A stretch of 64,000 bases of DNA from a virus (taxonomy: Duplodnaviria; Caudoviricetes), in IMG/VR virus record IMGVR_UViG_3300010167_000010, positions 1 to 64,000 of that record; one strand, given 5' to 3'. The notes below the pieces were generated by a model, which saw only the letters and a list, made by a program, of their open reading frames with translations, was not told the DNA's origin and did no database searches. Below, piece by piece: positions 217 through 30,105 of the stretch. The position numbers and the translations under genes are program-made. Numbering within the stretch: position 1 is the stretch's first letter; each line of letters starts with the position of its first letter.

Positions 217-525
217 ATGTATAATGAAGATGTTGCTGTAATTAATGATATTGATGAAGAATTAGATATAGAAGAACCAAAAGATTATGTTATTATTGGT
301 TTAAACGATAATTATACTAGTATGGATTTTGTATGTCTAGTTCTTCAACAAATATGTCATAAATCTAAAGAAGAAGCGGAAAAAATAATGCTCGATATTC
401 ATCAAAAAGAAAAAGGAATTATGTGGATTGGAGTATACGATATTGCTCAAACAAAACAATTACAAATTGCTAGTTTAGCTAAACAATTTAGTTTTCCATT
501 TAAAACTATATTAGAGGAAGCTTAA
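217..525 (+). CDS. clpS: ATP-dependent Clp protease adaptor ClpS
   Basis: LNDNYTSMDFV...AEKIMLDIHQKEKG...YDIAQTK...FPFKTILEE matches the ClpS signature. Confidence 0.92.
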   Translation: MYNEDVAVINDIDEELDIEEPKDYVIIGLNDNYTSMDFVCLVLQQICHKSKEEAEKIMLDIHQKEKGIMWIGVYDIAQTKQLQIASLAKQFSFPFKTILEEA

Positions 526-728
526 TGGCTCAATTATCTAAAGAATCTATAAAATTTTATTATGAAAATATGATGAAAACTCAAGACAAATCTATTCTAG
601 TATTACCCGGTTCAGGAAATCATAAATTAGTTTTAAATGGTGGTACTCTTCAATATTTTCATAATGGAAAACTTATTTATAAATTAAATGTTTTGAATAT
701 TTCAGGTAATTATGAGTTATTTAACTGA
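525..728 (+). CDS. small hypothetical protein with C-terminal ELFN tag
   Basis: ORF coupled to clpS; ends SGNYELFN*. Confidence 0.7.
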   Translation: MAQLSKESIKFYYENMMKTQDKSILVLPGSGNHKLVLNGGTLQYFHNGKLIYKLNVLNISGNYELFN

Positions 729-996
729 ACAATTAGATGGTGAAATAGATCTAGAAAAAGAAATAAAATTATATTCTTTTTTAGAAAAAAGAGAAGCTGA
801 TCAATTAAATTTTATAAAACGTATTCTTATAAAAGCTAAAACATATTATAGAAGACAAGGTTCTCTTAAAAATATTCACGAATATATTTCAACAGACTTC
901 ACTTTTTATGGTGGTGAAAATTTTTTCTTAAATAAAAAATTATTTGTAGAATATATAATTACTTATCTAGGAAAAGAATATGAACTCTTTGACTAA
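712..996 (+). CDS. small hypothetical protein with C-terminal ELFD tag
   Basis: ends GKEYELFD*. Confidence 0.7.
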   Translation: MSYLTEQLDGEIDLEKEIKLYSFLEKREADQLNFIKRILIKAKTYYRRQGSLKNIHEYISTDFTFYGGENFFLNKKLFVEYIITYLGKEYELFD

Positions 997-1003
997 ATAA
1001 ATA

Positions 1004-1252
1004 ATGGGACATCGTAATTGGAAGGAACCACGTAAGAAAAAAGAAAAACGATTTAAAGAAGAACGACCAAAACAAGTTCGTGCAACTCAAAATGATGCAT
1101 GGAAAAACTTAAAAGAATGGTTTTGGTCTATTAGATATAAAACTTGGTCGGACGCTGGTTATTCTGATGAAGAAATAAATGATATGTTTATTAAAAAAGA
1201 ACCAACTAATTATTATGATAGATACGATAAACACCCTAAAAGTTCTAAATAA
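1004..1252 (+). CDS. hypothetical basic protein
   Basis: ORF preceded by ACTAAATA at 992. Confidence 0.6.
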   Translation: MGHRNWKEPRKKKEKRFKEERPKQVRATQNDAWKNLKEWFWSIRYKTWSDAGYSDEEINDMFIKKEPTNYYDRYDKHPKSSK

Positions 1253-1661
1253 GTTACAAGAAGCAGATTTAAATGCAGGAGCAGTTAATGCGGCTGTTCC
1301 CCAAGCTGCTCCGCCTGCAAATAATCAAGCAGTAGATGCAACTACTCAAGCTAATGCAGAACAACGATTAATATCATTAGAACAAACGATGAATAATATG
1401 ATAACAAAAATGGATGCCTTAAATCAAGGATTAGCACAAGCAACAGGAACAGATCAATCTGCAGAAGGTCAAGAACAAACTCAAGAAGCACCTGCTGAAC
1501 AAGAAACTGCTCCTCCTGCTGATGGTCAACCACCAGCACAAGAAGAGCCACAACAAGAAGAACAACCTGCTGTAGATGAACAAGGTCAACCACTTAATGC
1601 ATCTCAATTTAAAACTGGTGAATATTTTGAAAGAATATTTAACAAGACAAGACTAAACTAA
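1215..1661 (+). CDS. putative late/virion protein, Q/E/A/P-rich (start revised from 1179)
   Basis: ACTAATTA 10 nt upstream of ATG 1215; KLQE protease-type site near the N-terminus. Confidence 0.6.
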   Translation: MIDTINTLKVLNKLQEADLNAGAVNAAVPQAAPPANNQAVDATTQANAEQRLISLEQTMNNMITKMDALNQGLAQATGTDQSAEGQEQTQEAPAEQETAPPADGQPPAQEEPQQEEQPAVDEQGQPLNASQFKTGEYFERIFNKTRLN

Positions 1662-1831
1662 TTATTAAGGAGAATATAATGGCAATTGTAGAAACTGTTA
1701 AAAATAACAAAAAAATGGAAGAAAAAAACCAAAAAGAACAAGATAAACTCCAATCAGACGCTATTTCTAAACTTTATAAAAATAAGAAACAAATAGATAA
1801 TAGTAAAAATACGAAACGTTAATTTAATTAT

Positions 1832-2134
1832 ATGTTTGATCCAAGAAAAGCTCTTTTAGGTTGGTATAACGAAGATAAAAGACTTTTTGCAAATCATGTT
1901 ATTGAAGTTTATCCAGATTTTAACCCAGACAAAGGTGATCTTTTAGATACAGAAGAAAAACAATGGAATGTTTTACTTTCTATATTTGAAGAAAATTTAT
2001 TACAACGTATAACTGGTAAAGAAAAATGTATTCAATGTAGAAAAAATTATATAAAACTTTGTGATAAAGATTGTGTTCAATGGCGAATAGAATCACGTGA
2101 TAAAATTTATAGTAATGCTGAGCTTTTTGATTAA
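1832..2134 (+). CDS. small Cys-cluster protein with C-terminal ELFD tag
   Basis: CxxC..C...C; ends YSNAELFD*; GTTAAT 14 nt upstream. Confidence 0.7.
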   Translation: MFDPRKALLGWYNEDKRLFANHVIEVYPDFNPDKGDLLDTEEKQWNVLLSIFEENLLQRITGKEKCIQCRKNYIKLCDKDCVQWRIESRDKIYSNAELFD

Positions 2135-2160
2135 GTTAATATAATATCTTATATAATTAT

Positions 2161-2562
2161 ATGAAAAAGAAAATTGATTTGAATGATGAAGAAAATGAAG
2201 ATTTGGGTTTACCAATAGTAAAAGATAATAAAATTACTTTTGCTAAACTTATTTTTCAGGGAAATCGTGGACCATATATTGTAGCATTTGAAGATTCTTG
2301 TACTAGAACTTATGCTGAAATGAATGCACTCGATTTTAAGAATGTAAATATAAACGAAATAAAAACAGCTGATGTTCCTATTTGGGAACCCGGAGCAAAA
2401 GATCCAGAAGAAATAAATGCTCTCCCAAAATTGAACTTAAAGAAACAAAAAGAAAAAGCTTTAAAAGAAAAAGAAGCGAGAAAACAAAAAAGAGCTGAAA
2501 AAATGAAGGCTACATTAAAAGCTAAAAAAGAAGTAAAAAAGCCAAAAGGAAAGAAAAAATAA
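2161..2562 (+). CDS. hypothetical protein with Lys-rich C-terminus
   Basis: ORF after TCTTATATAAT; followed by a terminator. Confidence 0.65.
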   Translation: MKKKIDLNDEENEDLGLPIVKDNKITFAKLIFQGNRGPYIVAFEDSCTRTYAEMNALDFKNVNINEIKTADVPIWEPGAKDPEEINALPKLNLKKQKEKALKEKEARKQKRAEKMKATLKAKKEVKKPKGKKK

Positions 2563-2569
2563 TTTATTC

Positions 2570-2593
2570 AAGCAGCCTCAGGGCTGCTTTTTT
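2570..2593 (+). terminator. intrinsic terminator
   Basis: AAGCAGCC-TCAG-GGCTGCTT followed by a T run. Confidence 0.8.
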
Positions 2594-2611
2594 ATTGTTA
2601 ATTTAACATAA

Positions 2612-3622
2612 ATGAATAAGCTTTACCTCTTAGGAGATTGTCATCTATCAGTATCTAGGGATTGGGATAGAGAGGCTTTTAATAAATTTATAGATTGGTT
2701 TGAACAACAAAATTTTGGTAATAAAGAAGAATGCGAATTAATTCAATTAGGAGATGTTGTAGAAAAAGCTACAAATCTTGGTGATACTTTAGAATTAGTT
2801 GCTAAATTTTTTACTATAGTTTGTAAAAAATTCAAAACAATTTATTTAATTGGTGGAAATCATGACCATAGATTAGTTCACGAAAAGTCTCAATATGCAA
2901 CACAATTCTTAAAATATATTGGTGATAGTCAGATTGAATTAATTTTTAAAGAACAAATATTTCATACTAAAAATGGCTTTCACATTATGGCTTTACCATA
3001 TAGAAGAGTTGAAGGTAAAATATTAGATGATTATTATTCTAATGAATTACCAGAAGAATTTTATAAAACTAAAGTAGATTTAGTATGTGGACATGTAGCA
3101 ATAAAAGAAGTTAAATCATTTTATGGTGGAATAAATATATCTAAATTTCATGGTAAACATAGAGCATTTGGACACATACATACTCGTAATGGACAATTTA
3201 AAGAAGATTATTGTGGTAGTATTTTTCCATTTAAAATTGATGAAGATATTACTGAATTACCAAGAATTATAAAATGTTTAACATCAAAAGGTTTAAGTAA
3301 TCCTATAGAAATACCACAATTTATAAAATATGAAAATATGAAATTTGGTGAAAAACCAAAATTTAATAAAAATTCTAATAAACTAGTTCATATATACACA
3401 ATTCATAATTGTAAAAGTGTTCAACAAGCTAAATCTGAATACCCTAATATTTATATAAGAGGTATAGAAAAAATACAAAATCAGATAAATGTAAAAACGG
3501 GAGAAAAAATAGAACTATTTATAACACCTTTAGATGCACTTAATAATTTAATTAAAGAAACTGGAATGATAATAAGAAGAAAAACATTATCCTTATTAAA
3601 AAATATATTGGAGACTTCATAA
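2612..3622 (+). CDS. Mre11/SbcD-like metallophosphoesterase nuclease (T4 gp47-like)
   Basis: GDCH, LGDVV, GGNHD, GH and GHIH phosphoesterase motifs. Confidence 0.85.
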   Translation: MNKLYLLGDCHLSVSRDWDREAFNKFIDWFEQQNFGNKEECELIQLGDVVEKATNLGDTLELVAKFFTIVCKKFKTIYLIGGNHDHRLVHEKSQYATQFLKYIGDSQIELIFKEQIFHTKNGFHIMALPYRRVEGKILDDYYSNELPEEFYKTKVDLVCGHVAIKEVKSFYGGINISKFHGKHRAFGHIHTRNGQFKEDYCGSIFPFKIDEDITELPRIIKCLTSKGLSNPIEIPQFIKYENMKFGEKPKFNKNSNKLVHIYTIHNCKSVQQAKSEYPNIYIRGIEKIQNQINVKTGEKIELFITPLDALNNLIKETGMIIRRKTLSLLKNILETS

Positions 3623-3882
3623 TGGCTACTCCATCACCAAATAATTTAACTTCATTTTTTGAATTATTAAAAAGAAATCCTCCTAATACTATGGAAGAAA
3701 GTTTTAAAATACGTTGTAAAAAATGTAAATTGACTTTAGAAGAACCACTTTGTCTTATAAATCTAGATGCTAGACCATGTGATGGTTATAAAATATTAAA
3801 AGAAAAACAAGAAGAAGAAAAGAAACTAATAATTAAAAAACAATTAGAGCCGATCTATGAAAATGCAGAACTCTTCGAATGA
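3622..3882 (+). CDS. small Cys-cluster protein with C-terminal ELFE tag
   Basis: CKKC..PLC..PCDGY; ends YENAELFE*. Confidence 0.7.
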   Translation: MATPSPNNLTSFFELLKRNPPNTMEESFKIRCKKCKLTLEEPLCLINLDARPCDGYKILKEKQEEEKKLIIKKQLEPIYENAELFE

Positions 3883-4069
3883 TTATTTTGATTCTATTTG
3901 TACAAAAGACGATACTTGTGTAATGTGTTTAGATTTAATGGAAGGCCCACTTTGTGGAATTCCTGGAAAATTAAGCGGATGCGAAAATTATGAAAATAAT
4001 AAAAGAGATTCTTTTATAAAATTAGAAATAAATAGAAGATTAGGAGAAGATACAGAACTTTTTGATTAA
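3857..4069 (+). CDS. small Cys-cluster protein with C-terminal ELFD tag
   Basis: CVMC..PLC..GCENY (paralog-like to the upstream ORF); ends GEDTELFD*. Confidence 0.7.
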   Translation: MKMQNSSNDYFDSICTKDDTCVMCLDLMEGPLCGIPGKLSGCENYENNKRDSFIKLEINRRLGEDTELFD

Positions 4070-4083
4070 GTTAATGTACTATT

Positions 4084-5154
4084 ATGGAATATACCATACA
4101 AGAAATATCAGTAGAGATATGTAATAGATTAAATATTCCCTTAAATGGCAAAACTACTGGGCAAATAGTAATAAAATGTTTATCACCATATCATATAGAT
4201 AATAGACCTTCTTGTTCTATAAGTTTAGACAAAGGAGTATTTAACTGTTTTAGTTGTGGATATTCTGGAAGTTTAAAAAATTTATATTATCAACAATTTG
4301 GTAGATCAATTTATAAAGATATGGGAATACATCGTTCCCTTATAATTCAACCACAAATAGAAGAACAAGCAGATTTATCTTTAATACCAGAAACAGATTT
4401 TAAATTTACTGGACAATGTTTTCCAATGTATACTACAGAATTAAGTAAAAGTTGGGTTAAAAGAAGAGGTTTTACTCTAGATTTAATGGACAGATTAGGT
4501 ATTAAATATCTTAAATTTGGTAGAACAGTAAAAAAATCTGATCCAACTAATAAAGAAGAATGGCGATCATATTCTGATATGGCTTTCATTCCAATTTTTG
4601 AAGAAAAAGAATTATTATGTTTTGAAGCTAGACAACTTAGAACTGAAGAAGAATGGAGAAAACATTTAGAGACTAAAAAAATAGAAGTAAAGGACTATAA
4701 AAAGCTTTTATATCCAAAAAATAGTTCTACTAAAACTTTATATCAATTTAATAGATTAAAAAAGAATGAACCTTTATTTTTAGTAGAAGGTTTAATGGAT
4801 TTAATATCTTTAAGAACTAATTCTATATTTCAAAATTCTACAACAACTTTTGGAAGATCTATTAAAGAAAGACAATTTTATCTATTAAGTCAATTTAAAT
4901 CTGATATCTTTTATATTCCAAATAATGATATTCCAGGAATTTCTGCTATTCAACAATTTAAAGATAAAGACTTAAAAAATGTTAGTATTCTACCTTTGCC
5001 AAATACAGTGAAAGATGTTAATGATATTCTACAAAAGAAAGATACTCGATTTAACTCTTTAGAGGACTTAATTAACTTCGGATGGTTAAATAATGTTATA
5101 AATATAGATAGATATGATATTAAGGCCCAGATTGATAGAGTTAATATACATTAA
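4084..5154 (+). CDS. DNA primase (CHC2 Zn finger + TOPRIM)
   Basis: CLSPYH...CFSCG Zn finger; LVEGLMD, NND.PG and KDVND TOPRIM motifs. Confidence 0.88.
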   Translation: MEYTIQEISVEICNRLNIPLNGKTTGQIVIKCLSPYHIDNRPSCSISLDKGVFNCFSCGYSGSLKNLYYQQFGRSIYKDMGIHRSLIIQPQIEEQADLSLIPETDFKFTGQCFPMYTTELSKSWVKRRGFTLDLMDRLGIKYLKFGRTVKKSDPTNKEEWRSYSDMAFIPIFEEKELLCFEARQLRTEEEWRKHLETKKIEVKDYKKLLYPKNSSTKTLYQFNRLKKNEPLFLVEGLMDLISLRTNSIFQNSTTTFGRSIKERQFYLLSQFKSDIFYIPNNDIPGISAIQQFKDKDLKNVSILPLPNTVKDVNDILQKKDTRFNSLEDLINFGWLNNVINIDRYDIKAQIDRVNIH

Positions 5155-5433
5155 ATGGAGATAAAGATGAGAGAATATGTCACTGAAGAACTTGAATTAG
5201 ATGAAGAAACGTTAGCTAAATTAAAGGAAATGGCAGAACAGTATAATACAACTATTGATAATGTAGTCAATGAAATTCTGATACATTATATTTCCGAAAA
5301 AATTACTTTAAAAGATTTTGTTAAAATTGTGGAAGAGATTGATGATAATAAAAAAGATATTGCAGAACTACGAAAGTATTATACGATCGTTGACGAAACC
5401 GGGACGGGAATTGCGAGGGTCATCCCGCTCTAA
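5155..5433 (+). CDS. hypothetical protein, possible ribbon-helix-helix DNA binder
   Basis: LELDEETLAKLKEMAEQYNTTIDNVVNEIL pattern. Confidence 0.45.
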   Translation: MEIKMREYVTEELELDEETLAKLKEMAEQYNTTIDNVVNEILIHYISEKITLKDFVKIVEEIDDNKKDIAELRKYYTIVDETGTGIARVIPL

Positions 5434-5434
5434 A

Positions 5435-5929
5435 ATGAACAACTTAATATCTCGAGGCTGTAAAGTACAGACAGTCATATCACAATCATTGTATAGTAAT
5501 GCTTTCGAGTTATTCATATTTAATACAAGACAAAATATGAATATGGGCGTAAATAAATGGCTCAAAAAGGTTGGTTATAAAAGTAAATATGATCCAGACT
5601 TAGGAGCTGCTGGTTTAATATATGAAAATAATAAAAATCAAGAAATCGAATTTGAAGGGGAGGATTATAAATTATTTGCTGCAATGTTTTTAAATGAAGA
5701 AGATCTTCATGTAAATATTATTGCTCATGAAGTTACTCACATTGCTTTAACTTTAGAAAGAAATATATTAAGATTTGTCGGTGTATATGATGGTAATGAT
5801 GGAACAGGTAATGCTCCAGAAGAAAGATTAGCATATACTATTGATGAATTTATGGAAAAAATTATTAGAGTGTGTATAGATAAAAAAGTTAAGTTAACAC
5901 TTGTGGCAGCAGATAAGAAAAAGAAATGA
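5435..5929 (+). CDS. HExxH metallopeptidase-like protein (start revised from 5318)
   Basis: IIAHEVTHIA...EERLAY. Confidence 0.6.
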   Translation: MNNLISRGCKVQTVISQSLYSNAFELFIFNTRQNMNMGVNKWLKKVGYKSKYDPDLGAAGLIYENNKNQEIEFEGEDYKLFAAMFLNEEDLHVNIIAHEVTHIALTLERNILRFVGVYDGNDGTGNAPEERLAYTIDEFMEKIIRVCIDKKVKLTLVAADKKKK

Positions 5930-6495
5930 AAGGATATGTAACTTTATATCTTGGCTCAATGAGAAGTAGTAAAACTTCTAAATTATTTGATGTAATTGAT
6001 CAGGCTAATTATAGAAAATTAAGACATTGTTTAGTTAGACCTACAATTGATACACGTGATTTTATATCTCGATATAAAGATATCGATACAGATATAATTT
6101 TATGTGATAAGTTAACAGATGAAGGTCTACCCACTAAACTTAAAAAATACGATATAATTTGTATTGATGAAGGTCAATTTATAGAACATTTATTTTATGT
6201 TCATAATTTAGCTTTACTTGGAAAAGAAGTTTATATTGCCGCTCTCAACGGTGATACTGAAATGCGACCTTGGGATAATATATCTAACATATTACCATTA
6301 GTAGATTATATAGAGCGTCTTTCAGGTGTTTGTGAAGAATGTGGAAGTAACAAATCTACATTTTCATATTATACTGAAATTAAAACAGAACAAATTATAG
6401 TTGGAGATGGTAAGTATATGGCTTTATGTAGAGATTGTTATAATACATTTTATAGAGAAAAAATGGGAATAATAGCAAAAGATAAATATATTTAA
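5926..6495 (+). CDS. tdk: thymidine kinase
   Basis: GSMRSSKTS P-loop variant, IDEGQF, CxxC...YMALCRDCY. Confidence 0.92.
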   Translation: MKGYVTLYLGSMRSSKTSKLFDVIDQANYRKLRHCLVRPTIDTRDFISRYKDIDTDIILCDKLTDEGLPTKLKKYDIICIDEGQFIEHLFYVHNLALLGKEVYIAALNGDTEMRPWDNISNILPLVDYIERLSGVCEECGSNKSTFSYYTEIKTEQIIVGDGKYMALCRDCYNTFYREKMGIIAKDKYI

Positions 6496-6851
6496 TCTTT
6501 TACAAATTCATTTAATATAACTTCAAATCTAGGATCCGGTCGTATCGGATCCTTTTTTCTTTTATAAGAAGACCAAACCCTATGAACCCATTTGTGGCAG
6601 CCACTACACAATATCCTAAATCTTTCGTCTTGTAAATTTGTATAATTATCTGCACTATCATTCATATAAATATGATGACAAGTTAACCTTTTTCCATAAC
6701 CACAAAATTCGCATTTTTCTCGTTGTTTAACTATTCTATTACGAAATTCTACCCAAGTTTTAGTTTTACGAAATAATGTTTTTTGTGATGAATCCCATAT
6801 TTCTCCGGCAACCCATGTAACAACTAGTTCTTTTTTCTTTTTTCTTGCCAT
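6492..6851 (-). CDS. HNH endonuclease
   Basis: CEFCG...HHIY...LCSGCHKWVH. Confidence 0.75.
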   Translation of the reverse strand: MARKKKKELVVTWVAGEIWDSSQKTLFRKTKTWVEFRNRIVKQREKCEFCGYGKRLTCHHIYMNDSADNYTNLQDERFRILCSGCHKWVHRVWSSYKRKKDPIRPDPRFEVILNEFVKD

Positions 6852-7148
6852 AATATAATTAGATATAGTTTGTTGATCTCTGATTTTGTTTCCTTTTTAA
6901 ATTTATCTTTAAAAACGAAAGAGATTTCGAGATCAAGATTGAAATTACAATAAATAGTTAATATTATACTAAATTTATATGATAAACGAAGATATTAAAA
7001 AAGTAGAGTATTTCTGTAAATTATGTTCCCATAAATGGGAATTGCAATACCCAATAAATTCTATTCCACCCGCTGAGATTAAATGTCCAAATTGTAATAG
7101 AATTAGAAATCATAGAAAACCATATAACTTTTTTAAGGACAATCAAAA

Positions 7149-7364
7149 ATGATAGTTTCATATTATTGTGAACATTGCGATAAAACATTTTCAAGAAAAC
7201 AAATTCAATCTCCAGCATTTACTACAGATTGTGAATGTGGTCATAAAGCAACTAGAACTTATAAAAATATAACTTCTACAAAAGAAGATGAGAATGTATC
7301 AGCTGCAATAGAAACAATGAAATATAGTAGTCTACCTTCAGGAAAAAATAAGGTAAATTTTTAA
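7149..7364 (+). CDS. Zn-ribbon protein (FmdB-like)
   Basis: YYCEHCD...CECG...R.Y. Confidence 0.55.
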   Translation: MIVSYYCEHCDKTFSRKQIQSPAFTTDCECGHKATRTYKNITSTKEDENVSAAIETMKYSSLPSGKNKVNF

Positions 7365-7547
7365 TGAAATCACCAGAAGAAAAAATAGTTTTAATGACAC
7401 CTGCGTTATTAAAGGCTATTAAAAAAGCTTTACCTCAAATTAGATCTCCTTATGTAGCTAAAGATTTAATGCGAATAGCCCTTAAAGTTGCTAAAGAAAT
7501 AAAATTAGTTAAAGGTTTAGAGAAAACTAAATAAATAAGGGAAATTT

Positions 7548-7940
7548 ATGAATAAAGAATTTGAAGATATATATGAAGATGACCAACCAGAACTTAATTT
7601 TGATGTATGTGAAGTCTGTGGAGAAGAAGCTACAGATGAATTTGATGGTAAATTTTATTGTATAGAACACTCACCTTATGAAGATATTTATGATGAGGAC
7701 GATGAGTATGATGAAGATCATGATCCAGAAGATCATGATATTTCTGGCACAGAAGAAGATTATATGGAAGATGAATTCGAAGACATATATAATGAAGAAG
7801 ATACTGAAGAAACAGATCTTTCTGATTATTTACGAGATGAAGAAGATTTAGCCGATTGGGATGATGACGAATTAGAAGATGAATTTGGTGAAGATTTTAG
7901 TGATAATTTAAATCTAGATTCTGATGATGAGGATTACTAA
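7548..7940 (+). CDS. extremely acidic late protein with small Zn finger
   Basis: roughly half D/E; CEVCG..YC.EH; ACTAAATA at 7526. Confidence 0.65.
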   Translation: MNKEFEDIYEDDQPELNFDVCEVCGEEATDEFDGKFYCIEHSPYEDIYDEDDEYDEDHDPEDHDISGTEEDYMEDEFEDIYNEEDTEETDLSDYLRDEEDLADWDDDELEDEFGEDFSDNLNLDSDDEDY

Positions 7941-8986: not shown

Positions 8987-9033
8987 ACTTATAAATCTTC
9001 TCTCAACTAATTACCAAGAGGAGAAGATAAATA

Positions 9034-15745: not shown

Positions 15746-15747
15746 AT

Positions 15748-19891: not shown

Positions 19892-20287
19892 ATGAAATTA
19901 GTAATGCCAGAACATCTCTTTAAAAGATGGGTTACTATTAGTTTATTATTAAAAGATGAAATTCAAATGCATCGAAATTTTGTTATAAGAGATGTATATG
20001 AAACTTATGTAAATTTTATTTTAATTCCTGGAAAAAAGGAAAATGAAATAAGTTTTGCTACTTGTCGTTTAGAAACTAAATTTAAAAATAAAATAAAATC
20101 ATGGTATTGGGAATATAATAAAGAATTGCATTATCTTAAAGATGCTGAAAGATTTATGTGGCTTTATAAAAAACTTTTTTCTATTTTAGAACAAAATAAA
20201 TTTAATAAAGCATTTTATGATACTTTTATACATAAGTTTGATTCTAATTATATAGAAATGATTACAGACTCAGAATTGTTTGACTAA
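19892..20287 (+). CDS. hypothetical protein with C-terminal ELFD tag
   Basis: ends ITDSELFD*; TCTTATATAAT at 19877. Confidence 0.7.
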   Translation: MKLVMPEHLFKRWVTISLLLKDEIQMHRNFVIRDVYETYVNFILIPGKKENEISFATCRLETKFKNKIKSWYWEYNKELHYLKDAERFMWLYKKLFSILEQNKFNKAFYDTFIHKFDSNYIEMITDSELFD

Positions 20288-20292
20288 ATATT

Positions 20293-20913: not shown

Positions 20914-20922
20914 ATTTATATA

Positions 20923-20933: not shown

Positions 20934-20951
20934 ATTTGTAAGGGAGATACA

Positions 20952-22201: not shown

Positions 22202-22372
22202 GGGAGAAAATATGTTGGAAAATCCTGGACCATTTTTAAGTTGGTTATGGACAGAAGCTTCATGGATAAATTTATCTTATGGAGATATCTTAGTATTAGG
22301 AAGTTTATTTGGCTTTGCCGTTATTATAGAAATTATTTCCCATCTTAGGGGAAAAGGGAGCTTGTTTTTCTA

Positions 22373-22759: not shown

Positions 22760-22959
22760 CAAAGAAAGCATTACGCAAGTATCAACGTGACTATTATAGG
22801 GAAAAGCGTAGAAATGATGGTGGAGAATATGCTGCATATATGGCAGAATATATGAGAAATTATCGAGCATCAAATCCTGATTATGTTAAACATGAAAGAG
22901 AATATAATAAAATATATGCTCGAAGAAAAAGACTTGAAAAAATAAGAGAAGGAAGATAA
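22744..22959 (+). CDS. small basic Y/R-rich protein
   Basis: YMAEYMRNYR-type repeats. Confidence 0.55.
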   Translation: MEKKMTKKALRKYQRDYYREKRRNDGGEYAAYMAEYMRNYRASNPDYVKHEREYNKIYARRKRLEKIREGR

Positions 22960-22961
22960 TA

Positions 22962-23342
22962 GTGATTTGGTTTTTAATTGTTGGTGGAATAACAGTTGTT
23001 GGATTCGTTTTATGGATTTTAGATCAATATTTTATGTGGTCTGGTGATGTCCTTTCGGTTATTGGTGTAATTTTTGGATTTGTTGGTGCAATTATTTTAA
23101 TATTTATGTTAAGTTTTGGAATTTATAATTGGGGCGGTGCTTTTGAAAGAGATTTTAATTTTAAGTATCAAGCTGCTGAGGCAATTTTAAAATCTGATAA
23201 CGATATTGCTAAAGCTGGAAATATGACTTCAATTCAAGATATAAATAAAATAATTTTAGGAAATAGAGCTTTTGTTGGTCATTCTTGGAGAGGGTTGTGG
23301 GCAAATGAAGGAATTGCTAGTTTAGAATTATTAGTTCCTTAA
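22962..23342 (+). CDS. membrane protein (2 TM)
   Basis: two hydrophobic helices. Confidence 0.6.
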   Translation: MIWFLIVGGITVVGFVLWILDQYFMWSGDVLSVIGVIFGFVGAIILIFMLSFGIYNWGGAFERDFNFKYQAAEAILKSDNDIAKAGNMTSIQDINKIILGNRAFVGHSWRGLWANEGIASLELLVP

Positions 23343-23375
23343 TGAGACTAATTATTAAGGAGTTAATATATAATT

Positions 23376-23552
23376 ATGGAAAAATTTTTAGTAGATTTAA
23401 CTATTACTGTTGAAGTAGAAGCAAATGATCATTGTCATGCAGAGGTTGTTGCTTTAGAAAAAATGAATATGCCAGGTATGGACGTAGTAAATGTTCGTTC
23501 ACTAGAAGAAGAATGTTCAGCTCAGGGAGAACTTTTTAATCAGTCCAACTAA
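23376..23552 (+). CDS. small protein with near-terminal QGELF motif (not in ORF track)
   Basis: MEKFLVDL...SAQGELFNQSN*; GTTAAT 14 nt upstream. Confidence 0.55.
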   Translation: MEKFLVDLTITVEVEANDHCHAEVVALEKMNMPGMDVVNVRSLEEECSAQGELFNQSN

Positions 23553-23726
23553 ACAATGGGTGCCTAATCAATTTAGACATCTTGATAGACAATGGGTTCA
23601 GTCATATCAATTACAAATTGAAACGAAAAGAGATTCAGATAGATCTTGGAAACCTAATAAAGAAAAATGTCCGCCGATAGGAGGAACTCACGCTATTCCA
23701 ATTGAAAGTAGTGAGAATACAAACTT

Positions 23727-24221
23727 ATGAAAGCAAAGTGTAAAGATTCAACTATTGAAATGTCTAATGAAGAATTTCAAGAAAAATTAGATAATTTAAT
23801 TACCAAAGAATTAATGAATCTTTTAGGTTCTTACTATCAAGGTAGTGAATATTTACAACCTATGGCAAAACAAGTTGTAGAAAATGCATCACATCTTGTT
23901 TTATTTCCAGTTCAAAGTGATTTAAAATATTTACAATTATCTGGTTGGTTTAAATGTGATGCTGAAAATTGTGATTGGAAAGGCTTGAATGGTATTTCTA
24001 GAGAAAATTATTTTTTAATTAGAAATTTACCCTGTCCAAAATGTGGAGCCAATATTTTCACAGATGCAGATTATAGTGGAATGGCATCAATAAATTGGGT
24101 AATGGGTTGGCCAATTATTAGATTTTTTAATTGGATTGGAAAACTTTTTAATATAAAAACTTCAAAGTTTTTAGTTAAAATGGACGGAACTGGGAAAGTA
24201 AATTTAGAAAAAATAGGTTAA
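23727..24221 (+). CDS. hypothetical Zn-finger protein
   Basis: KCDAENCDW...CPKCGANI. Confidence 0.6.
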   Translation: MKAKCKDSTIEMSNEEFQEKLDNLITKELMNLLGSYYQGSEYLQPMAKQVVENASHLVLFPVQSDLKYLQLSGWFKCDAENCDWKGLNGISRENYFLIRNLPCPKCGANIFTDADYSGMASINWVMGWPIIRFFNWIGKLFNIKTSKFLVKMDGTGKVNLEKIG

Positions 24222-24251
24222 TATAATAAAAATAATTATTGAGGAGAAAAA

Positions 24252-24632
24252 ATGAAAGTTGGAGCAATTGTTACATTATGCTCGTTTTTGTTTGTCGGAC
24301 TAATATGTCTGTCAATGTGGGGATGTCCAACGTATAGCGTTTGGAGTCAAGAAATGAAAGGTCGTGCAGAATTAGCACGAGCTGAACAAAACAAACAAAT
24401 TATGTTTATTGAAGCGCAAGCAATGCTTGAAGCAGAAAGATTTAATGCACAATCAGAAATTGTTAGAGCTGAGGGTATGGCTCAAGCTATGGAGATTGAA
24501 AATGGACAATTAACAGATATTTATATTCGATATTTATTTGTTAGAGCATTAGAAAATCTTCCAGAAGGTACGCAAGTTATTTATTTACCTGCAGCTGATT
24601 TTATGCCAATAAATGAGGCAGGAAGACGATAA
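24252..24632 (+). CDS. membrane-anchored band-7/SPFH-like protein
   Basis: TM followed by P.YSVWSQEMKGRAELARAE...AEG.A.A...YIRYL...VIYLP. Confidence 0.6.
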   Translation: MKVGAIVTLCSFLFVGLICLSMWGCPTYSVWSQEMKGRAELARAEQNKQIMFIEAQAMLEAERFNAQSEIVRAEGMAQAMEIENGQLTDIYIRYLFVRALENLPEGTQVIYLPAADFMPINEAGRR

Positions 24633-24652
24633 AGGAATTATAACTAAATAAT

Positions 24653-24727
24653 ATGAATATAAAAACCATTTCCAAACATAATTGTCTCTTTACAGCCATT
24701 TATAGTGATTGGAGGTGTCGGCCTTAA
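24653..24727 (+). CDS. 24-aa leader peptide MNIKTISKHNCLFTAIYSDWRCRP of a putative attenuator
   Basis: ACTAAATA 10 nt upstream; its 3' end can pair with the terminator 5' arm. Confidence 0.7.
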   Translation: MNIKTISKHNCLFTAIYSDWRCRP

Positions 24728-24786
24728 TTAACTTATAGAAATATAAGGAGGTGTATTAAGGCCGCAGAGAAATCTGCGGCTTTTTT
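24716..24786 (+). terminator. attenuator: antiterminator CGGCCTTAAT/ATTAAGGCCG overlapping terminator GCCGCAGA-GAAA-TCTGCGGC-T6
   Basis: mutually exclusive hairpins read directly from the sequence. Confidence 0.75.
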
Positions 24787-25079
24787 ATTGAACGATATTT
24801 TTTATATTCTTATATTCATTTTAGGAGGAAAAATAAATTGGGAACGTGCATAGAGTAAATGAGTATATGATATTTTTAATAATATCGTTTTATTATGATT
24901 GTGATTTAGAAGATGTAATTAACGACCGTATAGAAAAAGGTCGATATAAATATTATTGTTATTTATATTAAAATTGTTATTTGAAATGCGATGGTAAAAG
25001 TGGAATGCAATTACCAGATAGGGAAGGAAATATATTAAGTTACGTGTAGTTTGCTGTCTACTAATAAAACAGCAACTTT

Positions 25080-25152
25080 GCCGAATTAGCTCATTTAGCA
25101 GAGCCACCGCCTTGTAAGCGGAAGGTGACGGGTGCAATTCCTGTATTCGGCT
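25080..25152 (+). tRNA. tRNA-Thr(UGU)
   Basis: GCCGAAT/ATTCGGC acceptor; loop CT-TGT-AA. Confidence 0.85.
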
Positions 25153-25156
25153 TCAT

Positions 25157-25229
25157 ACACGATTGTTGTAGTGGTGCTGCAAACTTGTCTGATAAACAAG
25201 AAGTCTTAGTTCGATTCTAAGATCGTGTA
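25157..25229 (+). tRNA. tRNA-Ile(GAU)
   Basis: CTTGT-CTGATAA-ACAAG; TTCGA T-loop. Confidence 0.88.
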
Positions 25230-25336
25230 TCCAGGAACTTGGGGAATTCACGTCGGAGGACGGCCAAAGGTCCACAGGTTAAGTTCTATAGCGAAAGCGA
25301 ATGTTATATGCCCAGGACACTTATTTTGAAGGAGAA

Positions 25337-25600
25337 AATATGCTAAAGAAAATTAGAAAAATTGGAAGTAAAATATGGGATGGGTTTGGTTGGATATCAG
25401 ATAAACTTTCACCATTGTTAGCGTTGATATTTGCATTGCTATTTGCAATTTATTTATTCGCAACGATAATGGATTTTAGTATTTCAAATTTATTTCACTG
25501 TGTTTTAGGTGCATTATTTTTTAATACATTTGCGAGGATATCAATTAAATCGGTGATCATTGAAAGAGAAAAAGAGAAAAGAGATTTAGATAATAGTTAA
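25337..25600 (+). CDS. membrane protein
   Basis: AAGGAG RBS before MLKKIRK; two TM segments. Confidence 0.55.
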   Translation, partial: NMLKKIRKIGSKIWDGFGWISDKLSPLLALIFALLFAIYLFATIMDFSISNLFHCVLGALFFNTFARISIKSVIIEREKEKRDLDNS

Positions 25601-25616
25601 TTTATAAATTATAAAT

Positions 25617-25702
25617 GCGTCGTTATCCCGTAAGTAGTAGCGGTGCTGGCTGTAAACCAGTTGGCCGAAAGGCCTCGGGTGGTGCAACTCCATCACGGCG
25701 CA
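25617..25702 (+). tRNA. tRNA-Tyr(GUA)
   Basis: GCTGG-CTGTAAA-CCAGT; long variable arm. Confidence 0.9.
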
Positions 25703-25704
25703 AT

Positions 25705-26076
25705 ATGGAAAAAGATATTCTTTTTGAAAATGAAGATATCCAAGTTTACAAAGAAAAAAGAAGTGAGGATGTTGGATTAATGTTTGGAACTATTATTCCA
25801 ATTTATTCTCGTGAAGTTACAAAAAGAACTTTATTCCAGAAAATAAAAGATTGGTTTAAATGGTATTGGGATAGATTAATTTATTATCCATTCTTTTATG
25901 AAGAAATGGAATTTCCAATGTGGCATGTTTATAAAATAACAGATACTAACGGAATAGAACAAATGGTTCAATTATTAAGAATGCAAAAATTTGGTGAACC
26001 AATTCCACCAGATGCGGTGGATGAATATTTTAGAGATATGGAGATTCCAGGATGTATTATAAATCCTGAAAAATAA
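25705..26076 (+). CDS. hypothetical protein (start revised to follow tRNA-Tyr)
   Basis: MEKDILF... starts just after the tRNA. Confidence 0.55.
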   Translation: MEKDILFENEDIQVYKEKRSEDVGLMFGTIIPIYSREVTKRTLFQKIKDWFKWYWDRLIYYPFFYEEMEFPMWHVYKITDTNGIEQMVQLLRMQKFGEPIPPDAVDEYFRDMEIPGCIINPEK

Positions 26077-26255
26077 AAAATGGAAAAATCAGAATTTTTT
26101 GAATTGATACGTGAGGGTTCATATAAAGGATTTTATAAAATAATTATAGATAAAGGTCCACCTTATTGGGGCCCAATCGTTAATCGCGAACAAGCAGAGG
26201 AAATGTGGTCCCGCTTCAAAAATAGCGGACAAACTTTTGAGGAATTCGTTAAGGA

Positions 26256-26759
26256 ATGGTTATGAAATATCTAGGTCCAGAAAATCAAAGACCATGGAGT
26301 AAATTGGGAAGGGAAATCAAAAAGCTATTTGATCCAAAACTTCCACTTCAAATTCATTGTGTAGCTAGAACAATGAGAGGAAAAAACGCAATTGGTTCAA
26401 CGAGATTTCCAAGATATTGGATAACTTTGGGCAAAGAGATCATTTTCGATTATCCTGGACAATTTATGGAAATGATAGATCATGAAGCAAAGTCATGGTG
26501 TAGAAGTTCAGAAAATGATGGTTTTTGCCGAATTAAAGATTGTTATCCTTACGAAGAGCACGATGTTTCAGAGATATCTAATCTAATTAGAGAATACATT
26601 GATAGAGAAAAAGATAAATTATTCGAACCATTTGAAAATGACAGATGGGGTTTAATAGATTATTTAAGAGCTTCTGACAGGAGGATTGGAAAAAGAAGAT
26701 TAGAAAAAATACAAACAGAAAATGAATATGTAAAAAAAATTATTAAAATGAGGGGCTGA
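26256..26759 (+). CDS. conserved hypothetical protein (SF0329-like)
   Basis: WSKL...RYWITLGKEIIFDYP...DRRIGKRRL. Confidence 0.55.
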   Translation: MVMKYLGPENQRPWSKLGREIKKLFDPKLPLQIHCVARTMRGKNAIGSTRFPRYWITLGKEIIFDYPGQFMEMIDHEAKSWCRSSENDGFCRIKDCYPYEEHDVSEISNLIREYIDREKDKLFEPFENDRWGLIDYLRASDRRIGKRRLEKIQTENEYVKKIIKMRG

Positions 26760-27130
26760 AAATAGTTTCGATTTTTATGTTCAGCGTATTTGATTTTAGG
26801 ATAGTCGGCGAGACGATAAACAGCAAATAATTAATCGGCGAAACATACGATTATAGTTATGACAGACCTGTTAGAAATAACAGAGCTGCATTCGCGAGAG
26901 CGGCATAACCGATCCTGTTAGAAATGATAGTATCTAATAAGGGTTGACACCATGCTATCAAAGGCGAAAACTTTTTACTGATGGGTTTAGCATTAAAATT
27001 AAGATCAGTTGCAACTGGAGATACGAATTGCTTGTTGTTGATATCTCGGTTAGTTCGTAGAAACAAGATATTCCTATAGAGAATTAAGTATTGCAGTAAA
27101 AAGACGGCGGGGCAGAGCCGCCCAGCTCCA
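26752..27130 (+). ncRNA. ssrA: tmRNA; tag (A)GETYDYSYDRPVRNNRAAFARAA* at 26837-26908
   Basis: 5' GGGGCTG..TTCGA and 3' T-arm + CAGCTCC-A with G3:U70; internal tag ORF ending AA*. Confidence 0.92.
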
Positions 27131-27139
27131 CTTATACAA

Positions 27140-27211
27140 GCTCGGATAGCTTAGGTAGTAAAGCAATCGACTGAAAATCGATTTTCCCGGATGCGAGCGC
27201 CGGTTCGAGCA
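27140..27211 (+). tRNA. tRNA-Phe(GAA)
   Basis: ATCGA-CTGAAAA-TCGAT; atypical T arm. Confidence 0.8.
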
Positions 27212-27395
27212 AAACGCAAGCTTGCGGTTAGGAGATTAAAATGGATTTTAAATTAGAACTTACTTATGGTGAAGCATGCTCATTAAGAGATCTTTTATCT
27301 ACATTTCCTGATTGGGAAGATGTTGTAAAACAACTCAATAAATATATCGAATGGTATGAAAACGAATATCCAAAAAGGTATGGAGTAAGTTAAAT

Positions 27396-27653
27396 ATGTC
27401 AGAGTTAAAAACTCAAGAAAAATTAAAAAGTTGCTTCGAATGTAGATATAATATAATGAATGAAATACACCCAAGAGATTGGGCTTATACTGAAGAAACT
27501 GGATATTGTTTTTTTAAGAAATTAAAAACTAAAAGAGAAAATTATTGTGATGATCACATTAAAATTGGAATTGGAAAATTAATCAATATAAAAGTTTTTA
27601 ATGATGATAAACAAATGATAAAAGAAGCAATACAATATCTTCAGAGTTTATAA
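27396..27653 (+). CDS. hypothetical Cys-containing protein
   Basis: CFEC..GYC..YCD. Confidence 0.55.
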   Translation: MSELKTQEKLKSCFECRYNIMNEIHPRDWAYTEETGYCFFKKLKTKRENYCDDHIKIGIGKLINIKVFNDDKQMIKEAIQYLQSL

Positions 27654-27658
27654 AAATT

Positions 27659-27742
27659 GGAGAGGTAGTCAAGCGGCTTTGGCGGGACTCTTGAAAAGTC
27701 TTGTACCGAAAGGTATCGTGAGTTCGAGTCTCACTCTCTCCG
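27659..27742 (+). tRNA. tRNA-Ser(UGA)
   Basis: GGACT-CTTGAAA-AGTCT; long V arm; G73. Confidence 0.9.
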
Positions 27743-27746
27743 TAAA

Positions 27747-27860
27747 GATGACTGTAGCTCAGTGGTAGAGCACTTAAACCGGATCGTGTATATGGTCTTC
27801 ACCGCAATTCTAAACGCAATTTTAATGCAGTGGTCGGACGTTCAAATCGTTCCAGTCATC
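27747..27860 (+). ncRNA. tRNA-like RNA whose anticodon arm is replaced by a ~55-nt insert carrying the ACxGCAA motif
   Basis: acceptor GATGACTG/CAGTCATC, D arm GCTC/GAGC, T arm GGACG-TTCAAAT-CGTTC; no anticodon loop. Confidence 0.75.
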
Positions 27861-27900
27861 TAATGGTTATACTTAATGGGGTCGCACCTCATTAAATGAA

Positions 27901-27961
27901 TGTCGTGATGGGGATAGGTTTCCTCTGGCGCCACGATTGGGTTCGAGTCCCAAACACGATA
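27901..27961 (+). ncRNA. anticodon-less mini tRNA-like RNA
   Basis: TGTCGTG/CACGATA stem plus TTGGG-TTCGAGT-CCCAA T arm. Confidence 0.55.
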
Positions 27962-28097
27962 TAAAATTGAGTTGAAAGAACCAGGTTGCTACTGGAAGTT
28001 TAATTAACTTCCTTGAAAATTGCCTCACTGTCTTTTGGGAGTGCGCACTCCTTAATCCGTGCGGATCAGGTTAAAGTCGGCGGAGGAAAACTCAAAT

Positions 28098-28181
28098 GGG
28101 CGGTTGCCAGAATGGGATTGGAGCGGGCTTTTAACCCGTTGGAAAATTCTTCCAAAGAGTGTTCGATTCACTCATCGCTCA
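28098..28181 (+). tRNA. tRNA-Lys(UUU) with long variable arm
   Basis: GCGGG-CTTTTAA-CCCGT; V arm TGGAA/TTCCA. Confidence 0.82.
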
Positions 28182-28188
28182 AGTTTTA

Positions 28189-28262
28189 GGGCACATAACT
28201 CAGATGGTACGAGTCCCTGACTTTTAATCAGGTTGTCGGTGGTTCAAATCCACCTGTGCTCA
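28189..28262 (+). tRNA. tRNA-Lys(UUU)
   Basis: CCTGA-CTTTTAA-TCAGG, canonical. Confidence 0.92.
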
Positions 28263-28283
28263 TAGTAATACTAAATTTTATAT

Positions 28284-29441
28284 ATGCACAATTTTTTTAA
28301 TAATACTAAGAATAAAATTACTCTTATAATTTTATTGATGACAACAATCGCTTATGCTTCTTTATACTTTGTAGTTTATTTTACTGTAAAAGATGCATTA
28401 GATAGTAAAATGATTAATAATGTAACTTCAATTGCTGCATCTATATCAAAAACTATTGAAAATGATTTAGATAGATATTTATATTTTATAGAAACTAAAG
28501 ATATTTATTCAGATTATTATTTAGAAATGAATAGACATTTTGCACACCTAAAAGAAATTGGTTCATTAGCATATATTTATACAGTACGATTAGTTTGTGA
28601 TAACTATCTAGAATTTTTATTAGATGGTGAATTAAAATTTTCTGAATATTGGTCTGCACCGGGTGAATTAGAAGAAATTGATATAGGTGGAATAATTGCT
28701 TATTCAGAAAATAGGGTAGTTGGATTAAGAGATAAATCTGAATGGGGAGATTTAATAGTTGGGTATGCACCCATTCGTAATAAAGACGGAGAAATAATAA
28801 GTTTAGTTGGTGTTGATATTAGTGGTGATTTATTAAGTTCTTATTTGAATAAAATACAAATAATTTTAATTTTTCTTTATGCTATTTTATTAATTGTAGT
28901 TTGGATATTTGCAAAACAATATTCTAGTTCTATAGTTAAATCTATGTCAAAAGATAAACTTACTGGCGCTTATATAAAAAGATATTATGAATCAATATTA
29001 AAATATTGTGTTAAAAAAATGAATAGGAAAGATGATAAATTATTTGTAATGATTTTAGATTTAGATCGTTTTAAAAATATAAATGATAATTATGGTCATC
29101 CTTTCGGCGACAAAGTTTTAACAGAAGTTTCTAAAACAATTATGGGAATTTTAAGAAATAGAGATTATTTAATTAGATATGGTGGAGAAGAATTCGTAGC
29201 AATAATTCAATGCGATAAAGATATGAGAATTGAAGATGTAGCGAACAGAATTAGAATAGCTGTATCTGAGACTAAAATTTATAATGAAGAGCATAATAAA
29301 GATATTAGTTTAACTATTAGTATTGGCATAAGTGTTTATTTTCCAAAAGGAAAATCTTCAGATATGATACATCAGGCTGATAAAGCTTTATATGAAGCTA
29401 AAAAAGAAAGAAATAAAGTACATAGATTTATAAAAGGATAA
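28284..29441 (+). CDS. membrane-bound diguanylate cyclase (GGDEF domain)
   Basis: 2 TM around a periplasmic sensor; DKLTG, DLDRFKNIND.YGH..GD, RxxD I-site, RYGGEEF, ADKALYEAK. Confidence 0.93.
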   Translation: MHNFFNNTKNKITLIILLMTTIAYASLYFVVYFTVKDALDSKMINNVTSIAASISKTIENDLDRYLYFIETKDIYSDYYLEMNRHFAHLKEIGSLAYIYTVRLVCDNYLEFLLDGELKFSEYWSAPGELEEIDIGGIIAYSENRVVGLRDKSEWGDLIVGYAPIRNKDGEIISLVGVDISGDLLSSYLNKIQIILIFLYAILLIVVWIFAKQYSSSIVKSMSKDKLTGAYIKRYYESILKYCVKKMNRKDDKLFVMILDLDRFKNINDNYGHPFGDKVLTEVSKTIMGILRNRDYLIRYGGEEFVAIIQCDKDMRIEDVANRIRIAVSETKIYNEEHNKDISLTISIGISVYFPKGKSSDMIHQADKALYEAKKERNKVHRFIKG

Positions 29442-29443
29442 TT

Positions 29444-29923
29444 ATGGAAAACTTTAAGTTAAATAAAGATGCTAAAGATTATATTAAACATTTTTTAACT
29501 ATAATTTCAATAGCAGCTGCGTTTTGTATTTTTGTTGGTTTAACAATTGATTTTATTACTGTTGATGAAGTAATTGTGAGCCCAATTCAAATAATGGCAC
29601 TTATAGGAATTATAATTGGTGTAATTACTGCATTTTTTTTAATACCAACTTTAATAATATTTATAATTATTTTTATAAATCATATGAAATACTATAAATC
29701 TGTTAAAGGTTTATGGGGTTCTATTTTAGTAAATATTAAAACAGAAGAATTAGATTTAACAGAAGAAGCAATAGAATCAGAACAAGAACGAATTAAAAAG
29801 CATAACGAATTAGTTTTTTATTTTACTAAACAATGGATGATAGAAAATGAAGATAAACAAACTGAATGGATAAAAATACAATTAGAAAAATATTATAAAG
29901 GTGAAATAGAAATAGAAGAATAA
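29444..29923 (+). CDS. membrane protein
   Basis: 2 TM segments. Confidence 0.6.
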   Translation: MENFKLNKDAKDYIKHFLTIISIAAAFCIFVGLTIDFITVDEVIVSPIQIMALIGIIIGVITAFFLIPTLIIFIIIFINHMKYYKSVKGLWGSILVNIKTEELDLTEEAIESEQERIKKHNELVFYFTKQWMIENEDKQTEWIKIQLEKYYKGEIEIEE

Positions 29924-29940
29924 TAAAGGAAGAATTTAAT

Positions 29941-30105
29941 ATGCTAAAAACTATAAATGAAAAAGAATTTGTTAAGAAAATTGAACAAGCAATTAAAGAA
30001 AAAAATGCTGATTGGCTTTCTGAAAATATGTGGCTTATACATAATTGTGATGAATGGCACAAATTAGCAAAAGAAAGAACAGAAGGAGCAGAATTATTTG
30101 ATTAA
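29941..30105 (+). CDS. 54-aa protein with C-terminal ELFD tag (not in ORF track)
   Basis: MLKTINEK...ERTEGAELFD*; AAGGA RBS. Confidence 0.65.
   Translation: MLKTINEKEFVKKIEQAIKEKNADWLSENMWLIHNCDEWHKLAKERTEGAELFD

Follow-up and report, generated by a model that had tools for sequence, protein, structure and literature searches.

The first 64 kb of a complete virus record (IMG/VR IMGVR_UViG_3300010167_000010, positions 1 to 64,000; hereafter the window) contain a series of small open reading frames (ORFs) whose mostly unrelated products end in the same short peptide, ELF[D/E/N]. The whole record is 329,018 bp with direct terminal repeats and 28.5% G+C. We call this jumbo phage G000, and coordinates marked "genome" run on the whole record. 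The tail proves to be phage-wide and selected as a peptide. We put the chances at about even that it is a portable C-terminal short linear motif that docks some 30 unrelated small nonstructural proteins onto one common reader. That reading is suggested because the tail is selected at the peptide level, follows a variable linker, is movable, sometimes occurs in tandem and has changed form in concert between sister phages. Nucleotide and protein comparisons of G000 with GenBank phages gave no match, and no published description of such a tail was found in the literature searched. The host is probably a spirochaete, since the FliM–FliN gene of G000 is 53-67% identical to genes in spirochaete genomes (Brachyspira, Exilispira and uncultured Spirochaetaceae).

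Genes were taken as a greedy set of 436 non-overlapping ORFs genome-wide, 316 of them on the + strand. An initial annotation of the window had called for a genome-wide count of ELF[DEN] ends against shuffled controls, and the enrichment is clear: 17 of the 436 genes end this way, whereas 2000 within-protein permutations gave 0.03 on average and never more than 1. When the definition is widened to L[FL][DEN], there are 30 such genes (permutation mean 1.14, maximum 6). ELFD is the commonest C-terminal tetrapeptide in the set (14 occurrences), and ILFD is next (4). Counting all ORFs of at least 40 amino acids (aa), 18 end in ELF[D/E/N] genome-wide, and 12 of the 18 lie in one block that starts at 320.9 kb, crosses the contig ends and stops at 4.07 kb. 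Among the 551 ORFs not included in the gene set, only 2 have a tail-type end. The + strand holds every one of the 30 carriers (Fisher p = 6.5e-5), and the tail is found on 28 of the 171 small + strand genes (<=160 aa). At the DNA level, the pattern GARYTNTTYGAYTRA appears 14 times forward, never in reverse and never in a backwards-read control.

The 30 tails have Leu at position -3 without exception, Phe (24) or Leu (6) at -2, and Asp (26), Asn (3) or Glu (1) at -1. The listed counts at -4 are E18, I5 and L3. At -5 they are N8, A6, S4, Y3, D2, W2, C2 and T1, listed for 28 of the 30 tails, and at -6 they are E8, D5, N4, K3, G2, T2, M1 and Q1; position -7 is E/K. The consensus is (E/K)(E/D/N)(N/A/S)-(E>I/L)-L-(F>L)-(D>N,E)-COOH, and in G000 it is strictly C-terminal.

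The codons for E, L, F and D in the tail match genomic usage, which upholds the earlier argument from synonymous codons that selection acts on the peptide. Four Leu codons are in use (TTA 12, CTT 2, CTC 2, TTG 1). Only the last four codons and the stop have high nucleotide information; it is three-periodic, with the lowest values at third codon positions, and returns to background one base past the stop codon. The next gene starts anywhere from 26 nt upstream of the carrier stop, in overlap, to more than 30 nt beyond it. The carriers are nearly all ORFans in PHROGs and Pfam, and the 30 trimmed proteins gave only three marginal BLAST matches among themselves, all of coiled-coil type. These results bear on the explanation that the tail has no common function, being chance, hidden paralogy of the carriers or a signal in the DNA (a recombination site, a terminator or a promoter element, for example). 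What such an explanation could draw on is an identical 15-mer, GAATTATTTGATTAA, that the commonest codons yield in several genes. Codon usage and the three-periodic information ending at the stop codon rule out a DNA repeat or signal, and the scarcity and weakness of the BLAST matches rule out hidden paralogy. The permutation maximum of 1 for ELF[DEN], the varying downstream start distances and the retention of the tail in orthologues at 39-58% identity also argue against it. As far as sequence analysis reaches, a lack of common function is refuted, and we leave it scarcely any probability.

Relatives were reached via primase homologues; the percentages given for them are primase identities to G000. 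The comparison with relatives proposed in the initial annotation found tails in the close ones and none in three complete ones. The 68% relative (G006, which is 57.5 kb of the L040 relative) has 96 ORFs with 15 tails between them, most in extended form (ELFDDEEL, ELFDDDEV, DLFDEDELD), and one of its proteins carries two copies in tandem, SKLFDDSELFDDED. The next two were sampled as ~21 kb each: L046 (67%) has 5 tails (ELFD, DLFD and extended forms), and L042 (62%) has 8 (ELFD, ELFE, ELYDD, ILFD, ILYD). At 55%, G010 has no tail within a 16.7-kb window around the primase; its 51.8-kb record holds a single LFDDD protein, orthologous to 118722, and a single ORF ending in LLD. Farther out, in L044 (51%), L047 (49%) and L049 (46%), only the orthologue of the WGR-like protein of G000 (hereafter the WGR protein) bears a tail, which reads ELFDDDDEILI, ELFDDDGAMF and NLLFD, respectively; in the first two, the small gene after the WGR gene has a degenerate form. 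The complete jumbo relatives G008, G015 and G014 (41%, 41% and 28%) have no ELFD-stop in 993 kb, and an analysis of G008 identical to that of G000 showed no enrichment of any C-terminal k-mer. Host proteins with the same C-terminus were sought in five spirochaete genomes (13.4 Mb) and rejected, as none of 6 pattern matches falls at the end of an ORF of at least 30 aa. In an IMG/VR scan for the extended tail, only the one relative matched.

The form of the tail differs between sister phages. Of eight orthologous pairs, six have the short form in G000 and the extended one in G006, so that the same element can be LFD-COOH or an acidic run ending hydrophobic, as in LFDDEEL. The NUDIX hydrolase has an orthologue in tail-less G008 that aligns up to, and not into, the last six G000 residues, and therefore the tail appears to have been added to an older enzyme. 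The G010 orthologue of the 284-aa carrier also has no tail. We read the tail as an addition to pre-existing proteins. For most carriers of the dense block, no homologue was found even in what was sampled of close relatives.

The WGR protein is the oldest carrier in evidence. In the alignment of its orthologues, the L, F and D of the tail are the last invariant columns, behind a variable linker. Its C-terminal module runs from an F-M-x-x-L-G helix end through an acidic linker to (E/D)-L-(F/L)-D. A profile built from eight of the orthologues retrieved 149 clusters at 50% identity, of which 12, mostly the closest, have this module; more distant members end in WELE, WDLPD or similar. Judged from the WGR clusters and the distribution in relatives, the tail is ancestral on the WGR protein of an RNA ligase/HAD cassette and spread later, within one clade, onto accessory genes and older enzymes.

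Since relatives add 3-8 residues after LFD, a free carboxylate is not read at a fixed place. This counts against the possibility that the tail is a C-terminal degron, read by a host AAA+ protease or adaptor so that the effectors are removed or spared together, with the phage ClpS modulating. A degron would suit the strictly C-terminal position in G000, the functional diversity of the carriers, as expected of a fate tag, their origin from nonstructural + strand genes mostly near putative non-late promoter-like motifs (23 of 27), and the appending of the tag to the older NUDIX enzyme in one lineage. The ClpS gene is also directly upstream of two carriers in G000 and L046. However, the tail is anciently conserved on a repair-cassette protein, and ClpP was not found encoded in G000. 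ClpS recognises N-termini, and in two tail-rich relatives the syntenic 21 kb (primase +/- 10 kb) contain no ClpS gene. The C-degrons known from bacteria, such as ssrA (...LAA), have non-polar ends, and acidic ends block them. We consider a degron unlikely. The two points about ClpS also leave it poorly supported as a docking hub, which the initial annotation had offered as a possibility.

The 27 carriers that could be assigned to putative promoter-like motif classes are nearest an early-/middle-type motif in 23 cases and a late-type motif in 4. In combination with the bias towards the + strand, this is weak evidence for a role within the infected cell rather than for packaging. It counts against the idea that the tail is a cargo-loading signal for the interior or scaffold of an HK97-type capsid, by which effectors would be packed and injected into the next host. 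A short C-terminal peptide on unrelated proteins is indeed the logic of encapsulin cargo loading, and the carriers resemble host-takeover effectors, which would presumably gain from arriving with the DNA. All of them are nevertheless on the + strand among replication and accessory genes, with none in the - strand structural blocks, and the ancestral carrier belongs to an RNA-repair cassette. Encapsulin peptides are Gly/Ser/Leu-rich, not acidic. Cargo loading therefore seems to us quite improbable.

The reading we prefer is docking, in which about 30 small proteins would meet on one reader inside the infected cell. The invariance of the Leu–Phe pair suggests that it would anchor in a hydrophobic pocket. 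Because Asp or Asn precedes either the chain end or further acidic residues, a basic rim that takes either negative charge is suggested; it would meet the Asp together with the free carboxylate or with the next acidic side chain. The mode would resemble the tails of T4 gp55, gp33 and gp43 on gp45, or the LF anchor of bacterial clamp motifs. The initial annotation had proposed a phage-wide docking code. Its phage-wide extent, its action at the peptide level and the unrelatedness of its carriers stand, and the hubs it named are not supported; a compartment or a protease may yet be one.

One candidate reader is a 392-aa phage protein that matches bacterial beta clamps in structure (template modelling score 0.71-0.75) and in language-model features, with negative Pfam and PDB sequence searches. 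It is the DnaN-like clamp of a replication gene set that also includes a split family-A polymerase, a ligase, a RecA-like protein and a primase, and several carriers sit around the ligase and polymerase genes. The polymerase itself is in 695-aa and 300-aa parts, split by a 280-aa ORF that has no homologue in G008. That the reader is this clamp or the host clamp strikes us as a rather unlikely, if reasonable, suggestion.

The second candidate is the WGR protein itself. All tail-bearing phages sampled have it, and G008 and G015 do not, in what is a small sample. Its gene is in the densest tail cluster, and the next gene is tagged in all four tail-rich phages. Because the WGR protein tracks the tail and sits in that cluster, an ancestral contact between WGR domain and tail, later exploited by other proteins, is possible. 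As the reader, the WGR protein has in our estimate only a slim chance; some other phage or host protein has a chance about as limited as that of a clamp. The surroundings of the WGR gene have two features of their own. A 174-aa two-domain helical protein is encoded after it in every relative; fold comparison returned only insignificant rows, for extracytoplasmic function sigma factors, and the protein could be a phage sigma-like factor. A 290-aa protein, 70% identical in the 62% relative, has by eye the DIDFD and GGGIH motifs typical of archaeo-eukaryotic primase-polymerases, and its gene in the 68% relative is interrupted by a GIY-YIG endonuclease gene.

Other candidates were rejected. The groove of Hsp20 does not suit the E-L-F class: only the I/L/F-L-F/L subclass (9 of 30 tails) fits the I-x-I/V motif of small heat-shock proteins (sHSPs), and 18 E-L-F tails do not. 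The orthologues of the Hsp20-like carrier end in ordinary sHSP I-x-L or V-x-I motifs, and the sHSP-type motif probably applies to that carrier alone. Mimicry of the tip of the host single-stranded DNA-binding protein (SSB) is poorly supported as well: the G000 tails end in D, N or E and not in Phe, spirochaete SSB tips differ, and the phage has a separate protein with a FEEDDEF end. The Brachyspira/Exilispira-like SSBs (L069, L073, L074; low G+C) end in (D/E)(D/E)(D/Q)NLV(S/K)(I/V)EN rather than DDDIPF; in two higher-G+C spirochaete genomes (L066, L071), the SSB ends in DDIPF or DDVPF. No SSB domain (PF00436) was matched in the whole G000 genome. The separate protein, 166 aa long and encoded in the replication module, ends in STFEEDDEF, a tail of SSB/T7 gp2.5 type, and is by that sequence a candidate phage single-strand-binding protein. 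The CheY/flagellar switch is excluded as reader, since the phage FliM keeps its own CheY-docking peptide and G000 has no stand-alone REC protein. The chemoreceptor pentapeptide (xWxxF-COOH) does not describe the tails: W is present in 2 of 30, and none has Phe last.

A last candidate is an HExxH protein encoded directly after the primase in 7 of 7 tail-bearing relatives and absent from G008 and G015. Its invariant signature is HEC-x-H ... ERN ... GNDGTG ... EERLAY. The confident AlphaFold2 model (predicted local distance difference test 81.5, predicted template modelling score 0.81) found no convincing PDB fold and no protease match (Foldseek E >= 0.09; VIA Z <= 5.3), and it may represent a new minimal zinc-binding fold. 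The other genes of the conserved block gave no PHROG or Pfam match. The distribution of this protein is compatible with the tail being the recognition or substrate site of an enzyme, whether a peptide-modifying enzyme, a protease cutting after Asp/Asn or a ligase acting on the terminal Asp/Asn. So are the many radical S-adenosylmethionine enzymes of G000, the terminal D with N as its minor form, and the acidic extension in the relative, which a cut after D would remove. In G000, though, nothing follows the Asp to be cut, the HExxH protein has no protease fold match, and no enzyme is tied to the tail by adjacency or specific co-occurrence. Among the larger genes, 127 of 228 also have no G008 homologue; G008 is thus so distant that phylogenetic profiling for the hub is limited. 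An enzyme site is, in our judgment, improbable.

Several points weigh against docking on one reader. Sequence and structure comparison of the clamp, the WGR protein, ClpS, Hsp20, SSB mimicry, CheY and the HExxH protein established none of them as the reader. The clamp, which the initial annotation had listed among possible hubs, is encoded by tail-less G008 and G015 too, and the Gln–aliphatic half of the clamp motif is missing from the tails: Gln is at motif position 1 in 1 of 30, and the aliphatic residue of position 2 is absent. Both halves of the polymerase and the ligase are without the tail. The carriers include the NUDIX hydrolase, the 284-aa protein ending in NNILFD and the protein with a FliM-type peptide, which have no evident reason to be addressed to a replisome. 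The WGR fold is known as a nucleic-acid binder, not a peptide binder. Finally, the Hsp20-like carrier, with its NILLD end, may be a false member of the tail set by comparison with its orthologues.

Within the window, the seven ORFs first read as ending in ELF[D/E/N]-stop are all present, all on the + strand, and no - strand ORF has an end of this type. Their reported setting around clpS, an Mre11-like nuclease and a primase is borne out by gene assignments, with ClpS placed by 54% identity to a Pfam-annotated ClpS of a relative, and three of them do have clusters of four or five cysteines (Table 1). The orthologues of the 67-aa ORF end in YELFDDEEL (in the 68% relative), NYELFE and NYELFD. The 94-aa ORF has no homologue in any sampled relative, and neither it nor the 67-aa ORF has a PHROG match. 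A promoter-like motif, GTTAATATA, is 14 nt upstream of the start of the 100-aa ORF. A weak orthologue of the 86-aa ORF in the 68% relative ends in SELFDDEELI. An eighth ORF, 58 aa long, had been noted for a near-terminal motif; its ELFN is four residues before the end, and because the G006 orthologue ends in PELFDE, we count it as a true member with a short extension. The 54-aa ORF that was missing from the first gene track is a real gene: a tailed G006 orthologue at 52% identity reads AELFDDEED at a contig end.

Table 1. Positions of tail carriers and other features discussed (window coordinates unless marked genome).
Feature	Coordinates	Strand	Remarks
67-aa ORFan, ends SGNYELFN	525-728	+	begins at stop of phage ClpS gene
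94-aa ORFan, ends GKEYELFD	712-996	+	ORF and C-terminus present
100-aa ORFan, ends YSNAELFD	1832-2134	+	4 Cys; ORF and C-terminus present
86-aa ORFan, ends YENAELFE	3622-3882	+	4 Cys; ORF and C-terminus present
70-aa ORFan, ends GEDTELFD	3857-4069	+	5 Cys; just upstream of primase
131-aa ORFan, ends ITDSELFD	19892-20287	+	G006 orthologue (39% identity) ends SDLFDDEEF
58-aa ORF, near-terminal GELFNQSN	23376-23552	+	extended tail
54-aa ORF, ends TEGAELFD	29941-30105	+	absent from first gene track
Hsp20-like protein, ends NILLD	genome 154239-154982	+	
NUDIX hydrolase, ends ELFN	genome 230262-230732	+	
284-aa carrier, ends NNILFD	genome 277893-278747	+	rIIB-like label; no Pfam/PHROG match
Carrier with FliM-type (CheY-docking) LSQEEIDQLL peptide	genome 320902-321282	+	
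WGR-like protein, ends ELFD	genome 326329-326694	+	after T4 Rnl1-type RNA ligase and HAD_SAK_2 phosphatase
ClpS	217-525		
47-aa hydrophilic ORF	1679-1822	+	
GTTAAT(A/G)TA sites	2135-2160; 4070-4083		
ORF upstream of Mre11-like gene	2161-2562	+	not ClpS
Mre11-like phosphoesterase	2612-3622		beside tagged ORFs
DnaG-type primase	4084-5154		beside tagged ORFs
HExxH protein	5420-5926	+	
166-aa protein, ends STFEEDDEF	genome 147308-147808 (L005:8308-8808)		
DnaN-like clamp, 392 aa	genome 150014-151192		
Split family-A polymerase	genome 154998-158831		
280-aa ORF within polymerase	157082-157924 (genome)		
174-aa helical protein	genome 327124-327648 (L014:17124-17645)		
290-aa protein	genome 327677-328549 (L014:17677-18546)		

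The neighbourhood of the tagged genes has other features. The ORF directly upstream of the Mre11-like nuclease, which was rejected as an alternative ClpS, keeps that position in relatives wherever the region is sampled. Its product, folded in the N-terminal part and rich in lysine at the tail (...KKPKGKKK), may be an accessory protein that binds DNA ends. Two tagged-gene stops, at 2134 and 4069, are followed at once by the promoter-like motif GTTAAT(A/G)TA, which lies before the next gene. The 47-aa hydrophilic ORF is 77-89% identical across relatives in which the genes beside it reach just 45-68% identity. Either the peptide is under strong constraint or the ORF overlaps an RNA or regulatory element.

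Beyond docking as such, we hold more tentatively that the clade has an addressing system of its own, in which one reader of LFD tails, the WGR protein or another phage or host hub, has co-evolved with them between sister phages. By that account, and no less tentatively, some 7% of the proteome and 16% of the small + strand genes would have been wired by gaining four residues. Small ORFan proteins of phages are the largest block in virology without assigned function, and a shared four-residue label on 30 of them is a single experimental handle: a pull-down with one peptide could name the hub and place the whole effector set in one pathway. With a sliding clamp as the reader, no larger clamp "toolbelt" would be known from a virus; with any other reader, the tail would amount to a new viral device for sorting or timing. 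The portable tag could also be used to direct proteins within infected cells.

The tail can be set beside several known systems. Like the ssrA degron, it is a short C-terminal tag that could decide the fate of many proteins, but ssrA is added co-translationally and has a non-polar end, whereas the G000 tail is encoded in the genes, is acidic at its end and tolerates extensions. Encapsulin cargo-loading peptides are also C-terminal, are found on unrelated proteins and have one receptor; they differ in sequence type, and the G000 carriers come from nonstructural genes. The SSB tip (...DFDDDIPF) and the T7 gp2.5 and gp4 tails are acidic-hydrophobic addresses for a hub, and the LFDDDGAMF and LFDDDDEILI of relatives are similar to them. 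The G000 tails differ in ending with Asp or Asn rather than Phe, and the carriers are not SSBs.

The closest likenesses are with clamp-binding peptides. The bacterial beta-clamp motif is Q-aliphatic-x-[L/M]-[F/L], often on a disordered C-terminus, by which many partners use one pocket (PMC11139829), and LF alone binds subsite I of the clamp (PMC11139829). The G000 tails have the [L/M][F/L] anchor pair throughout (L in 30 of 30, followed by F in 24 and L in 6), and a beta-type clamp is present as a possible receptor. They differ in that Gln and the aliphatic residue are absent (-6 is E/D/N and -5 is N/A/S), Asp/Asn is obligatory after Phe, and the clamp gene is also found where the tail is not. 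The T4 clamp-binding epitopes, which can be exchanged for one another, are short hydrophobic-acidic peptides on divergent linkers (PMC2988020). The G000 tails agree with those of gp55, gp33 and gp43 in being short and hydrophobic-acidic at the extreme C-terminus of unrelated proteins of one phage, behind a divergent linker. No gp45-family clamp (PF02916) was matched in the whole G000 genome at E <= 1. The two phages differ in that the G000 clamp is DnaN-like and its polymerase is of family A and has no tail; they differ also in scale, since T4 has three such carriers and G000 has about 30.

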